DNA of 64,000 nt from Patescibacteria group bacterium. Lineage in GTDB: Bacteria; Patescibacteriota; Minisyncoccia; Phycocordibacterales; SBAW01. Both the position numbers and the translations under genes were made by a program. The stretch is taken from positions 67,062 to 131,061 of the forward strand of contig JAIEMM010000002.1 in the NCBI GenBank assembly GCA_019752125.1, written 5' to 3'. This document shows, piece after piece, positions 9,357 through 14,100 of this stretch. Numbering within the stretch: position 1 is the stretch's first letter; the number at the start of each line of letters is the position of its first letter. The notes below the pieces were generated by a model. That model saw only the letters and a list, made by a program, of their open reading frames with translations. It searched no databases and was not told where the DNA came from.

Positions 9357-10394
9357 CTAAATATGTTTTGCGAGGCGCGATACATGTTCAACAAGCGCAT
9401 GCGTATATCCCATCTCGTTGTCGTACCATGCCATCACCTTCACCAAATTTCCGTCAATAACACGCGTAAGAGAAAGGTCTGCGATAGATGCAAAAGCGCT
9501 TCCTACAATATCGCTTGAGACGAGAGGCTCATCTGTTACAGAAAATACTGGTTTCCATCGCGCATCGGCCGCTGCCTTTTTCAACAAATCATTTACTTCT
9601 TGCGTACTCGTCGGACGCTTTGAAATAAACGTTACATCAGCAATAGACCCTGCAATAATAGGTACGCGCAGTGAGATGCCGTCAAACTTGCCCGCAAGCG
9701 CAGGCACCGCCTTTGTTACCGCAACAGCGGCCCCCGTTGAAGATGGCACGATATTGTGCGCGCCCGCGCGGCCATCACGAAAGTCTTCTTTAAGTTTTGC
9801 TTTCTTTACTGGACCATCGACTAAGTTTTGTGATGCAGTGTAGCCATGTGTCGTAGACAGCACCGCCTTTTCAATACCAAGACCTTCTTCCAAAATCTGG
9901 ATAAGCGGACTTGCTGCATTTGTCGTACACGATGCGTTAGATGTAATCATCGCGCCCTCAAACTTGTCATCATTGATGCCGACCAAGATAGTTGCGCCGG
10001 CAATACCTTCTGGCGCTTCATCTTTAACTGGCGCAGTGATCACTACCCTCTTGGCCCCGGCACTAAGGTGGACTTTTGCTTTTTCAAAACTCGTAAAGAA
10101 ACCTGTGCTTTCTACCACAATATCTACACCGAGTTTGCCCCACGGCAATTTTGCAGGATCTGCTTCTGCATATACAGGAATCTGTTTACCATCAATTATA
10201 AGAGAATGTTCTCCTGCTTCAACAGAAAAGTCCGCTCTGCCATAGACGCTGTCGTACTTAAGTAAGTATCCCAGATTTTCCGCATCGCCTAAATCGTTTA
10301 TTGCGACAATCTCAAACTCAGGACGCTCATGCGCGACACGCATAAACGCACGACCTATTCTTCCAAACCCATTGATTGCAATTTTCACTGACAT
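9357..10394 (-). CDS. gap: Glyceraldehyde-3-phosphate dehydrogenase
   Basis: NGFGRIGR NAD-binding motif and the active site ASCTTNA. Confidence 0.95.
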   Translation of the reverse strand: MSVKIAINGFGRIGRAFMRVAHERPEFEIVAINDLGDAENLGYLLKYDSVYGRADFSVEAGEHSLIIDGKQIPVYAEADPAKLPWGKLGVDIVVESTGFFTSFEKAKVHLSAGAKRVVITAPVKDEAPEGIAGATILVGINDDKFEGAMITSNASCTTNAASPLIQILEEGLGIEKAVLSTTHGYTASQNLVDGPVKKAKLKEDFRDGRAGAHNIVPSSTGAAVAVTKAVPALAGKFDGISLRVPIIAGSIADVTFISKRPTSTQEVNDLLKKAAADARWKPVFSVTDEPLVSSDIVGSAFASIADLSLTRVIDGNLVKVMAWYDNEMGYTHALVEHVSRLAKHI

Positions 10395-10475
10395 GCATAT
10401 ATTTTACCACTGACTTTATCTTCCCCCTATGCTCAGATTACTAGCAACTCATCTCATATCAGTACACTACAAAGT

Positions 10476-10494
10476 GGCGAGGTCCGACCTCGCC
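10476..10494. repeat. REP-like 19-bp palindrome GGCGAGGTCCGACCTCGCC, copy 1, just upstream of the RAYT start
   Basis: Near-perfect inverted repeat seen directly in the sequence. Two more copies are at 10668-10686 and 11174-11192. Confidence 0.55.
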
Positions 10495-10504
10495 CAAATA
10501 TTTC

Positions 10505-11170
10505 ATGTCGAGAAAGATCTCAATCGTTCCAGGTGAGTTTTACCACCTATATAACCGTGGTACGGAAAGAAGAAATGTATTTATGGATAATACCGACTAT
10601 CGCCGATTCCAAAGTCTACTTTATCTAGCAAATAGCATTTTACCTATCCATTTTGACCATATTAAACCGCGAGGTCGGACCTCGCCCGATATATATCTCC
10701 TTCAACGTAAGAATCTACTGGTTGAGGTGTGTGCATATACCATGATGCCTAATCATTTTCATATCTTGGTAAAGGAAAAAGTCGAGGGTGGAATAAGCCA
10801 TTTTATACAAAAACTTAGTACGGCGTATACGATGTACTTCAATAAAAAGAATGGGCGAAATGGTGTTCTGTTCCAAGGTAAATATAAAATAGTCCATGTG
10901 GACAATGACCAATACTTGAAATACTTGGTCTCCTATATTCACCTCAATCCAATAAAACTTATCGAACCGACATGGAAAGAAACGGGTATTAAAGATAGGG
11001 CTAAAGCTAAGGAATATCTTGCCACTTTCCCCTATTCAAGCTATCCAGATTTTCTGGGCGAACAACGACCGGAAAAGGCAATTATTTCAACACAGAGCCT
11101 CCCGATTTATTTCAACACCACAAAAGATTTTGAAGCTGAAGTTACGGACTGGCTAAGCTACGAAAAATAG
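10505..11170 (+). CDS. IS200/IS605-family HuH Y1 transposase, REP-associated tyrosine transposase (RAYT)-like
   Basis: HuH motif MMPNHFHILV and catalytic tyrosine region KYLVSYIHLNPIK. Flanked by REP-like palindromes. Confidence 0.75.
   Translation: MSRKISIVPGEFYHLYNRGTERRNVFMDNTDYRRFQSLLYLANSILPIHFDHIKPRGRTSPDIYLLQRKNLLVEVCAYTMMPNHFHILVKEKVEGGISHFIQKLSTAYTMYFNKKNGRNGVLFQGKYKIVHVDNDQYLKYLVSYIHLNPIKLIEPTWKETGIKDRAKAKEYLATFPYSSYPDFLGEQRPEKAIISTQSLPIYFNTTKDFEAEVTDWLSYEK
10668..10686. repeat. REP-like palindrome copy 2 (CGCGAGGTCGGACCTCGCC), inverted orientation, inside the RAYT coding sequence
   Basis: Reverse complement of copy 1 apart from 1 nt. It encodes PRGRTSP within the transposase. Confidence 0.45.
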
Positions 11171-11173
11171 GCT

Positions 11174-11192
11174 GGCAAGGTCCGACCTTGCC
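11174..11192. repeat. REP-like palindrome copy 3 (GGCAAGGTCCGACCTTGCC) between the RAYT stop and the giant-gene stop
   Basis: Same orientation as copy 1 with a compensatory G-C to A-T change at the paired positions 4/16. It lies between two convergent stop codons (11168-70 and 11194-96) and could act as a bidirectional terminator. Confidence 0.5.
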
Positions 11193-11193
11193 A

Positions 11194-14100
11194 TTACTGG
11201 ACGATGACGGTGCGGGTTGCGGTACCTGTGTTGCCCGCAGCGTCAGTTGCGCTAAAGAGGATGGTGTAGGTGGTTGAAGTTGAAGTATCGAGAGTCAGCG
11301 CAGAGATATCCATGCGTGGGCCGCCATCAACAGAAACCTGGAAGCCAAGATTCTGGTCAACATTGTCGGTTACGGTTGCGCCCATGTCACTGTAGGTTGA
11401 ACCGATAGAGATAGTTGCTGGATTATTCCCCTGCAAGATAATTGTTGGTGCTACTGTGTCTGTTGAAGTTGCATTACCACCATTTCCTCCCCCGCTTCCA
11501 TTGCCGCCTGTTTGTGGTGAGCCTGTCGAACCCACACCAGAGAGCAGCGAGTCGAGCTGGGCCTTGGTGATACAGGTTTCTCCGCCTGCGTCTGAGAGGC
11601 AGACTTGGTCGGTGTGAACTTCTTTTGCATAGACTTTGTTGAAGATACCGACAGTTGCTGAGATTGCTCCGTTAAACGCACGTACCACCATCGAACCGAG
11701 TCCGCTGATAGCTGAGTTAAGTGTTGATGAGAATCCGCTGACGACTGGGCTTGTTGTAGAAGCTGTAAGAGTTTGGGTTGTTGAGGTTGCCATTGAAGAA
11801 AGTGTGTCGAGTGCCATGTCGCTTACATAGAGGTCTGACTTGATGAACACTTCGATAGTGCCTGTGTTGCTGCTTGTTGCCATCTGCGCAGTCCATGGCT
11901 GGAGCGCAACACCGATGCGGTATGTTGCTGAAGTTGCTTTTGTAGCAACACCTTCTGTTGATGAAAGTACGATCGAGTCGCCTACTGCGATATCGCCGCC
12001 TTCAAGGTTTACCTTCACTGGTACGCGGCCTGAGAGTGCGACCGGCTTGGTTGTTGAAGCGGCCAACGCATCGGCACCGCCGAGGATAAGACCTGGATTG
12101 CTTGAGATAACACCGAGGGTCTTAGCACCTGCCTTTGCCTTCTCTATATATAGAGGGTTTTGAGGATCAAGCGCTACGACATCGCCGGCTGCAAGTGTCT
12201 GGTCGTTTGTTGCGTAGCGTTCAGCAACGTCGTAGTTACCAGTGTTTGCTGCAGTGTAGTAGATATTTCCTGGAGTTGTGCCGCAGGCAACCGTTGCGCC
12301 AGCGCCAACCGAGAAGCAACCTGAACCAACGACTGTGAGGTTTGAAGTTGGAGAGCTTGTACCGATACCAACATTTCCTGCATTTGTAACTGCAAACAAC
12401 GTTGTGGTTGCAGTTGCGGTTGAAGAGCCGATTGCAAACAGCGTTGTGTTGAGATCGCCGTTTTGTGCATGGACAGAAAGTTTTGCAAACGGAGTTGTTG
12501 AGCCAACACCTGTGTTGTTGCCAGCAGCACCTGCGGTTACATAGAAGCCGCGTGACGTAGATGCTGTGGTTCCTTCAAAGGCGCTCAAAAGATACGTGCC
12601 GTTGCCAGCGTTTGTACCAACCGTAAGAGTTGGGTTGACGAGCAAGGCAGACCATTTGCCTGCACCTCCACCGTTTGAAATTGAAGTAGTGACGCTGAGG
12701 CCAGAGCCGTGCTGTGTCGTATATCCAGATACATTGGTACTTCCTTGAATAGCGAACTGGGAGGTGTTTGAAGTTCCAGTACGAGAGATAGACGCACCGT
12801 TTGCATATACCTGGAACAGTGTGCCTCCTGCGTTTACCGCCAATCCCGAAACATTAGCGGTTGAACCACTGCCTGTGTTGATAGCCACATCTCCTTGGTT
12901 GTTTACGGTAAACAACGTCGTCGTTGCTGTTCCGGTAGACGACGCGATCAAGAACATGTTTGGTACCGCGCCATCAGTTCCCATTGGCGTTGCAACAGTA
13001 AGATATGCAAGGCTAGGAGACGTTGTGCCAATACCAAGACCCACCGAAGAGCTATTTCTTATATTCTTTATAGATATAGAGTTTGAAGCGTTCGAGGCGC
13101 CGCCTACCGTCAACAACAACTTCGTATTGGCAGACAGGAGCATGTCGCCCGTGGTAACACCTGAGTTATTACCTGTGCCCGCACTGTTGAACGCAAACCC
13201 ACCAAGAACTGGAGTAGTTGGAGAGTACGCATCGTTGTACATACGGAACATCCATGGACCTGAGCTCGGCGCGTGCAATTCAAGACAATTGTCTGAGGAA
13301 CCAGCACTTGCAGAACATTGAACCTTAAAGAAAGAGTTGTTGGTGTTTGCAGTCGTGCCAAACAAGACGCGGTGGTCTTGTGTAATAAGCATTTCAGATT
13401 GTGTTGACGAACCTACAGCAAACGCTGGAACTCCTGCAGCAAGACTTGATGTATCCACTGAAAGACGTGCGAGTGGAGTAGTTGAACCGATACCGATGTT
13501 GCCTCCACCAAGTGCTGTCAAAACAGGGGTTTTTGCGTTCATCATTCGTATCTGGAACGCTGCACTCGTACTATTGTAGTTATTTCCAATATACGCAGTA
13601 GTAGCGCCCGCTGCGCTATATCCACTGTAAGCAAAGTATAGTGGTTCATCTCCTGCGCTGTCGCTCCATCTAATTGCTTCCCCGTAAGCCGCCCCTGAAC
13701 CTGCCACACTTAAGTTAGATGAAGGTGCCGCTGTACCGACGCCGACGTTGCCAGTATTTGTAACTGCAAACAACGTTGTAGTTGCTGTTGGAGTTGATGA
13801 CGCAATTGCAAACAAGGTTGAAAGACTGCCGGTTGCGCCTGCTGGTGTTGCAATGGAAAGCTGAGCATATGGGGAGGTGGTTCCAATGCCGACGTTGCCC
13901 GCAGATGTGACAGTGAGGAGCGCACTTCCGTATCGAGCGGTTGCACGACCAGCACTTGAATCTAACACACTTGTCCTGCGAGCAATGACAAACGCGTCAC
14001 TGCTTCCAAGACTATCACCGCCGTACGGCCTGCCAGTAAACCATTCAGTCTGACCAGTGGTGTCGTAGTAGTAATTACCGAGACCGCGATAGTTTGTGGA

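Follow-up and report, generated by a model that had tools for sequence, protein, structure and literature searches.

Gene and palindromes at the locus

We analysed a stretch of 64,000 nucleotides (nt) from a Patescibacteria group bacterium (assembly GCA_019752125.1, contig JAIEMM010000002.1, positions 67,062 to 131,061), which is called the window below, and concentrated on one gene of the Y1 HUH transposase family and on the small palindromes that it carries. An earlier note, made from the sequence alone, had described a 221-amino acid (aa) HuH Y1 protein encoded between gap and a giant adhesin gene, and had compared it with the REP-associated tyrosine transposases (RAYTs), the enzymes linked to repetitive extragenic palindromic (REP) sequences. 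The gene and its surroundings are as described there: the protein matches the Pfam family Y1_Tnp with an E-value of 5.6e-10, and the motifs NHFHILV and YIHLNP are located in it (Table 1). From the comparisons reported here, we think it probable that this is a vertically inherited, single-copy gene for a RAYT-like Y1 HUH endonuclease of single-stranded DNA (ssDNA), embedded in its own cognate palindrome.

Two 19-bp palindromes flank the gene and a third copy with an inverted centre lies within its coding sequence (CDS), all of which agrees with the earlier description. When up to 3 mismatches were allowed, only these three sites (6 strand-hits) were found in the 64-kb window, while 0.01 hits are expected in the shuffled window and none of 100 shuffles reached 6. 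A scan for the palindromic core AGG-N5-CCT returned the same three sites and no others. The core of the internal copy, CGA GGT CGG ACC TCG (10670-10684), is read in frame 0 as codons 56-60 (RGRTS). Folded as ssDNA, the 5' copy reaches -9.3 kcal/mol (z -5.4), the internal copy -7.3 kcal/mol (z -2.7) and the 3' copy -9.4 kcal/mol (z -4.7). The 3' copy indeed sits between two convergent stop codons, namely the TAG of the Y1 gene (11168-70) and the stop of the 2162-aa open reading frame (ORF) on the minus strand (11194-96). A permissive search of window positions 10200-11400 against Rfam gave no match.

The 5' and 3' copies share the same orientation and differ by one G-to-A and one C-to-T change, with pairing retained. 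In the closest relative (L185, 83% aa identity) the 3' copy is still of the CGAGG...CCTCG type, so this pair of changes in the window 3' copy is recent. The earlier note had taken the two changes as compensatory and as a sign of selection on structure. The pairing is kept, as it said; selection is not the sole reading, because templated (quasi-palindrome) mutation could also keep the stems perfect, and exchange between hairpins could do the same.

Table 1. Features of the Y1 gene and its surroundings (positions in the window).
Feature	Position	Strand	Remarks
5' palindrome GGCGAGGTCCGACCTCGCC	10476-10494		8-9 bp stem; ends 10 nt 5' of ATG
Internal palindrome CGCGAGGTCGGACCTCGCC	10668-10686		centre inverted; inside CDS
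3' palindrome GGCAAGGTCCGACCTTGCC	11174-11192		between two convergent stop codons
3' palindrome, extended stem TGGCAAGGTCCGACCTTGCCA	11173-11193		9-10 bp stem; begins 3 nt past TAG; abuts stop of convergent 2162-aa ORF
Y1 HUH endonuclease CDS, 221 aa	10505-11170	+	ORF call; TnpA-Y1 class 2 (RAYT-like) by motifs and predicted fold, subclass 2.1 motif signature
HuH motif NHFHILV, residues 83-89	10751-10771	+	strand 85-91 of predicted model
Catalytic Tyr motif Y144-IHLNP	10934-10951	+	class 2 'Y---NP'; helix 135-152 of predicted model
gap	9357-10394	-	upstream neighbour of Y1 gene
Divergent intergenic region, gap / Y1 gene	10395-10475		presumably both promoters; weak consensus matches only
Giant repetitive surface-protein ORF, 2162 aa	11194-17682	-	downstream, convergent neighbour of Y1 gene

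Fold, motifs and class of the protein

Searches of PDB by sequence and profile gave only marginal matches (E about 0.04-0.05; 0.039 for 4ER8), so we used fold comparison instead. An AlphaFold2 model was built from an alignment of 119 homologs and has a mean pLDDT (predicted local distance difference test) of 85.8. In a Foldseek search against PDB, its best match was the E. coli TnpAREP with a REP hairpin bound (4ER8; E 3.4e-6), followed by the structures of IS608, ISDra2 and IS200 TnpA. Across the 119 aligned homologs, residues N83, H84, H86, Y144, H146, N148, P149, S178 and S179 are invariant. The C-terminal tail of the window protein is helical in the model. Y1_Tnp was the sole Pfam domain at E<=0.01, and a helix-turn-helix (HTH) domain was not detected at this threshold.

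TnpA-Y1 proteins have been classed by their key motifs, with DH[VI]H and Y---Q as the signature of IS200 (Quentin et al. 2018; PMC6006769, Table 1). The window motifs NHFH / LFQG / YIHLNP / YSSY correspond to the subclass 2.1 row of that table (NH[YF]H / FQ / Y[IV]HLNP / SS), and the signature fits this subclass as an assignment from motifs, not from phylogeny. Judged by its sequence and predicted fold, the protein belongs to the RAYT-like class 2 TnpA-Y1 proteins and not to IS200 TnpA. This placement is based on the 4ER8 fold match and on Y---NP, together with the occurrence of the gene in single copy and the gap-gene-adhesin order kept in relatives, both described below.

More than 5000 homologs are present in the database, essentially all of them from Patescibacteria. 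The nearest homologs found outside this phylum are 'transposases' from plasmids of Skermanella and Pseudomonas (29-31% identity), which carry the other subclass 2.1 signature (NH[VF]H / WE / Y[IV]E[LA]NP). These proteobacterial homologs lack some 29 aa that connect helix A with strand 2 in the window protein, and this is the segment in which the internal palindrome sits. Carriage of the family by phages was rejected, as only two distant relatives (25-34% identity) were found among the viral contigs of IMG/VR. Searches of the literature on RAYT, REP or IS200 in the Candidate Phyla Radiation, Patescibacteria or Parcubacteria found no relevant description.

In the public annotation, the window protein appears as a 195-aa entry (P0001) whose start is placed at Met27; look-ups by exact sequence returned no record for the 221-aa protein or for P0001. 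This start leaves out window positions 10505-10582 and drops the first strand with the invariant residues H14, Y16, N17, R18 and G19; the N-terminal MSR..YHxYNRG segment is kept among homologs.

Cognate palindromes in orthologous genes

The family comparison covered 80 orthologous loci from one-genome-per-species assemblies of Patescibacteria, with about 82 orthologous genes. Matched 5' and 3' palindromes were found for 66 of these genes. The 5' hairpin is centred at -36 (median) relative to the ATG. The 3' hairpin has its centre at +12.5 (median) at the stop codon, which it overlaps in 22 of the 66. Altogether there are 48 distinct 15-mer palindrome types. The AGG-N5-CCT core is common to them, the outer stems vary, and the conserved part is the AGG...CCT adjoining the loop.

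The two palindromes of one locus resemble each other: the 5'-3' distance is 1.7 of 15 nt within a locus versus 6.6 between loci, and 0 of 5000 permutations reach the observed value. Of the stem cells in the alignment of 61 5' hairpins, 94.3% are paired, a percentage that arises partly by construction since the windows were centred on detected hairpins, which does not apply to the compensatory diversity; changes on both sides occur in all 8 stem pairs (149 cells). The covariation score is 0.73 versus 0.14 for shuffles, with 0 of 500 shuffles reaching it, and slid controls all stay at or below 0.13. G-U pairs occupy only 3 cells within the inner six pairs and are nearly absent among 488 stem cells, which points to a DNA palindrome and not to a structure that exists as RNA only. 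Besides, protein distance follows hairpin distance (Mantel r 0.42; reached by 0 of 2000 permutations). These comparisons show that the palindromes undergo concerted evolution, both among themselves and together with the protein.

Some genomes contain two or three divergent paralogs of the gene, for example L024 (two genes) together with L060 on contig CAVYCR010000012.1, and L045 (two genes). Each paralog has its own palindrome type, such as CGAGGTTAAACCTCG, TGATGTCCGACATCA and CCAGGTCTTGCCTGG, which mirrors the rule of one RAYT for one REP family.

Copies inside the gene and at its stop codon

The earlier note had asked for the internal copy to be looked for in orthologs, and it is conserved in about a third of them. 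Among 64 loci with matched flanks, 21 have a copy of their own palindrome type with up to 2 mismatches at CDS nt 156-186, and in 15 loci the copy is exact, loop included. The distribution of internal matches is bimodal (0-2 versus 5-8 mismatches), and controls with the palindromes of other loci never fall below 3 mismatches. In frame 0 are 20 of the 21 copies, with the codon pattern [CAA|CGA|GAA] GGN NNN NCC [TTG|TCG|TTC], by which the encoded peptide is forced to Gln..Leu, Arg..Ser or Glu..Phe pairs flanking an invariant Gly. Residues 54-60 of the window protein, encoded by the palindrome, are the sole internal segment with pLDDT <50 and are predicted to form a disordered loop. The window copy also uses minor codons, with CGG accounting for 6% and CGA for 14% of Arg codons. 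The loop peptide, restricted to complementary codon pairs, is a clear case in which DNA structure overrides protein sequence.

Genes of the CTAGG-type clade have no internal copy, which is expected, since the stem (...CCT AG) would bring an in-frame TAG into the gene. At the 3' end of these genes, the TAG in the palindrome stem is often the stop codon of the gene itself, and in other clades the stop codon is a TAA or TGA in the palindrome loop; such 3' ends were noted at L021, L023, L026, L028, L036, L037, L039, L044, L048, L050, L054, L055, L058 and L060. The position of the 3' palindrome at the stop codon is a feature of the family and is independent of the orientation of the neighbouring gene.

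Promoter and terminator geometry

A TATAAT-like -10 box was found just 5' of the ATG in 61 of 80 loci, compared with 8.5% at random positions. The end of the box is placed exactly 6 nt from the ATG in 36 of these loci, a spacing that implies leaderless mRNAs. The 5' palindrome is centred over the -35 region, with a median distance of 23 nt from its centre to the -10 box downstream, and this location on a leaderless promoter in most orthologs suggests autoregulation. At the window locus a -10-like hexamer, TACACT, is found 7 nt upstream of the hairpin, and TACAGT occupies this place in L185; a scan of the window for promoter consensus sequences gave matches at chance level only. In the clade with ...GGTCTTGCC..., the loop of the 5' hairpin fits a -35 hexamer (TTGCCT with a 17-nt spacer), with an orientation bias of about 11:1. 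A role of the loop as -35 hexamer for the whole family was dropped, as it fails for the CAAGGTTCAACCTTG clade.

The earlier note had also suggested that the 3' palindrome doubles as a bidirectional terminator, and this survives for one direction. A T-run stands behind the hairpin on the minus (adhesin) strand and is missing on the plus strand, so transcription of the giant adhesin gene could end at this palindrome. An intrinsic terminator for the sense strand was rejected, with no T-run in the window and none consistent in the family. All three palindromes (10476-10494, 10669-10685 and 11173-11193) look like terminators with T-rich tails on the minus strand, where 0.6 are expected from shuffles.

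Residence of the gene and change of the loops

The order rpe-rpiB-gap-gene-adhesin-like ORF is present in L001, where the identity to the window is 56% for the Y1 gene, 80% for gap, 52% for rpiB and 39% for rpe. The gene order in L188 and L189 (P0006, 62% identical) is the same as in L001, and in L186 (P0003, 68% identical) gap is directly upstream of the Y1 gene. Only one Y1 copy exists in the 64-kb window, and a second copy was found in only 2 of 80 loci, both of them divergent. The search turned up no near-identical duplicates, and any one cluster is seen on one or a few contigs. We conclude that the Y1 gene is an orthologous and long-resident gene of an Adlerbacteria-type lineage and not an insertion sequence, because synteny is kept in the Adlerbacteria-type relatives.

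At these syntenic loci, the palindrome loops differ between genomes, and the copies within one genome share the loop. The window and L185 have the loop TCCGA / TCGGA, L186 has TTCGA / TCGAA and L001 has TCTCG / CGAGA. In L188 it is CTCAA; the 5' copy of this locus is decaying and its 3' copies are mixed.

A giant surface protein adjoins the Y1 gene throughout this lineage. The 2162-aa protein of the window has recurring GNVGIGTTSP-like repeats, and the downstream surface protein of L188 (6734-12666) has 4428 aa and a Bact_surface_Ig-like domain.

Dispersal of the palindrome

We counted dispersed copies as matches to the locus-specific 17-mer with at most 2 mismatches that lie more than 200 nt from the gene on either side. 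In 1.03 Mb of family loci there are 27 extra copies, compared with about 0.15 expected by chance, and most family loci have none. The one REP-rich locus is L020 (Lloydbacteria), in which 16 copies of C[AG]AGGTC[CG]GACCT[CT]G are found between genes within 14.3 kb. Their type, with CGAGG/CCTTG hybrids among them, is that of the window itself. Close to the gene they are singlets about 64 nt apart, and elsewhere they form inverted doublets at a distance of 27 nt. Thus the palindromes can spread in the fashion of REPs and REPINs (REP doublets forming hairpins), and usually have not done so. At L020 9842-10807 the gene has tandem copies about 64 nt apart to either side, accompanied by a repeated flanking sequence (ggacttgcata...). 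This locus contains CGAGG as well as CAAGG stem alleles, together with mismatched hybrids of the two.

A metagenome scan for GGCRAGGTCSGACCTYGCC found 102 loci, a number near the chance expectation for that collection, and about half of them are on contigs of >=60% GC. The palindrome adjoins a recognisable homolog in only 5 of these loci, and the scan is uninformative on dispersal. On a few metagenome contigs resembling the Candidate Phyla Radiation, the palindrome flanks other small genes. In the metagenome contig L088 (1-1032), a toxin-antitoxin pair of the RelE/YafQ type is bordered by exact copies of the window palindrome, and in L143 (1-1750) this palindrome flanks a 277-aa ORF, a methyltransferase by eye, beside another toxin-antitoxin pair. 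The layout resembles a cassette.

Proposed explanation and alternatives

We consider it probable that the window contains a RAYT-like endonuclease gene which is inherited vertically in single copy and is embedded in its cognate palindrome. The enzyme would bind the hairpins in ssDNA at the replication fork or the transcription bubble. Its cleave-and-rejoin chemistry may keep the copies alike and may occasionally seed new ones, as is thought for the spread of REPs and REPINs. At the promoter-proximal copy, the enzyme or the extrusion of the hairpin could throttle expression of the gene itself. The in-frame copy would be tolerated since the loop is floppy, and it would be present only where the stem codons are sense codons.

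Several observations weigh against this explanation. No fourth copy of the palindrome was found in the 64-kb window by either scan, so there is no direct sign there of mobilisation of the REP type. A GT[AG]G tetranucleotide is not conserved at the foot of the three window copies and the 61 aligned 5' hairpins, and the stems are perfect palindromes, whereas characterised substrates of RAYT and IS200 enzymes are asymmetric and imperfect. The sole NCBIfam match of the protein, REP_Tyr_transpos (NF047646), scores 37.6 bits against an equivalog cut-off of 80, and subclass 2.1 was reported without REPs near the gene (PMC6006769). In 33 loci the 5' and 3' copies have the same orientation and in 31 they are inverted to each other, a nearly random ratio that is not easily reconciled with the loop being recognised in a strand-specific manner. 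The window, L185 and L186 are atypical in that their 5' hairpin is separated from the ATG by 7-11 nt containing no -10 box, and the '-35 operator' reading is not directly applicable to the window locus. The part of the pairing percentage that comes from centring on hairpins belongs on this side as well. The RAYT-like system proposed in the earlier note is supported in part, by the class 2 protein with Y---NP, the 4ER8 match, the single-copy synteny and the conserved flanking and internal palindromes; the GT[AG]G foot is missing, the NCBIfam score falls short and dispersal is sparse.

A more far-reaching version, which we regard as doubtful, is that the enzyme is no spreader of REPs and forms with the palindrome a self-contained module with sites in the gene's own promoter, CDS and stop, in which hairpin exchange catalysed by the enzyme keeps the copies identical and an autoregulatory switch serves a host function in reduced genomes, dispersed REPs being an occasional by-product. 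If it is true, the enzyme would mainly act on its own gene and sense the single-stranded state of that gene, coupled to replication or transcription.

Next, the palindromes could be duplex operators for a dimeric, domesticated transposase that has turned into a regulator, with the internal and stop copies as auxiliary sites for looping or as roadblocks, and without cleavage. The palindromes are perfect and in most orthologs centred on the gene's own -35 region, their orientation is irrelevant, as expected for a symmetric duplex site, and they are almost confined to the gene itself. We still judge this unlikely. The HuH and Tyr residues needed for catalysis do not vary among the 119 homologs, which argues for kept chemistry; the intergenic singlets and inverted doublets of L020 and other loci need a copying activity; Pfam detected no HTH domain; and the E. 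coli TnpAREP is a monomer that binds single-stranded DNA (PMC3479197).

It is also quite improbable that the hairpins act as RNA, unlinked to any activity on DNA, with the 5' hairpin as a stabiliser or translational control and the 3' hairpin as a terminator or stabiliser. The -10-like hexamer 7 nt before the hairpin in the window and L185 would let the mRNA begin with the stem-loop, the 3' hairpin follows directly after the stop codon, and the three window hairpins are terminator-like on the minus strand. In most orthologs, however, the 5' palindrome is upstream of the -10 box and so untranscribed, and G-U pairs are nearly lacking. The sense strand offers no T-run in the window and none that is consistent in the family, and Rfam gives no match. 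Hairpins acting as RNA would give no reason for three like sites, loop included, or for a freely inverted loop.

The least probable alternative is a plain IS200/IS605-type insertion sequence transposing as ssDNA with the outer hairpins as its left and right ends, for which the Y1 HUH fold common to IS608 and ISDra2 TnpA, the IS608-like same orientation of the two outer window copies and the lack of another hairpin copy in 64 kb (the very finding that the earlier note had said would favour it) can be cited, and against which stand the motifs NHFH and Y---NP in place of DH[VI]H and Y---Q (PMC6006769), the 221-aa length with a C-terminal extension compared with about 150 aa for the core only, a gap/adhesin junction kept at 68, 62 and 56% identity with divergence akin to that of rpiB and rpe, the lack of near-identical duplicates among the sequences found, the random orientation of the ends across the family, the absence of tnpB, and ends that are perfect palindromes and not imperfect hairpins.

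Comparison with known systems

The E. coli TnpAREP/REPtron (subclass 2.2, 4ER8) shares with the window gene the Y1 HUH fold and Y---NP, and both are single-copy, vertical and flanked by coevolving cognate palindromes. The two proteins are 14% identical in the fold alignment and match with a profile E-value of 0.039, and the window protein has a C-terminal extension of about 70 aa and an insert of about 29 aa before strand 2. Hundreds of REPs are dispersed in E. coli, as imperfect hairpins that are bulged and have GTAG at their 5' foot; the window palindromes, in contrast, are perfect, have the AGG-N5-CCT core, lack GTAG and hardly occur outside the gene.

Cognate REPs within the CDS have one precedent in the literature, subclass 2.4 (Bertels group 4; Cyanobacteria and Bacteroidetes), in which REPs lie in frame within tnpAREP and in a peripheral loop, an arrangement called unique to 2.4 (Quentin et al. 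2018; PMC6006769). Unlike these, the internal copy of the window precedes the HuH motif and falls into the stretch from helix A to strand 2. The motifs of subclass 2.4 are YIxNNP and WQ, compared with YIHLNP and FQ in the window, and its REPs are of long 'double foot' GT[AG]G types, unlike the window palindromes.

IS200/IS605 TnpA genes (IS608, ISDra2) are alike in the HUH/Y1 fold, in being flanked by hairpins and in having the promoter beside the left hairpin. The window gene differs from them in its motif class, in not being multi-copy, in its synteny across species, in the variable orientation of its hairpins and in having no tnpB.

For subclass 2.1 (Bertels RAYT group 1; 'TIRYT'), the key motifs are exactly those of the window protein, and the median length is 238 aa versus 221 aa. 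Members of this subclass are reported to have a distal HTH (Bac_DnaA_C, HTH_23 or HTH_28-like), whereas none was detected by Pfam in the window protein. The subclass was reported without REP-like sequences, whereas in the Patescibacteria family cognate palindromes flank nearly every gene. Our results extend REP-type palindromes to a branch with the subclass 2.1 signature that was reported to be without them, and to the Patescibacteria, for which the literature searches found no such report. What is new here is RAYT/REPtron logic in a new phylum and branch, with atypical palindromes, a minimal population of them and a fixed arrangement at promoter, loop and stop.

To our knowledge, the role of RAYTs for their hosts has been open since their first description. 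The model systems in E. coli and Pseudomonas have hundreds of REPs, and cause and effect are hard to separate in them. Here a RAYT-like enzyme is found in hundreds of species of Patescibacteria, typically with only two or three cognate palindromes, all of them on its own gene. It offers a minimal test system for binding, cleavage, autoregulation and the homogenisation of copies, and a stripped-down model of RAYT function.

Two further observations touch subclass 2.1 relatives. The Skermanella gene of subclass 2.1 type (L183) has no such hairpin upstream, and two identical hairpins, GTTGCGCC-N3-GGCGCAAC, are found downstream of it (2298-2316 and 2370-2388), a pair which may be local REPs. Besides, perfect DnaA boxes (TTATCCACA), often in the form AGTTATCCACAG, occur beside the flanking palindromes in 13 of 82 loci of the Patescibacteria family, the window not being one of them. 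Boxes within 150 nt of the gene are found in L008, L031, L034, L046, L053, L063, L067, L069, L071, L075 and L079, and their density is 0.19 per kb near the gene versus 0.04 per kb overall. These boxes are intriguing because a DnaA_C-like HTH domain is frequent in subclass 2.1 relatives.

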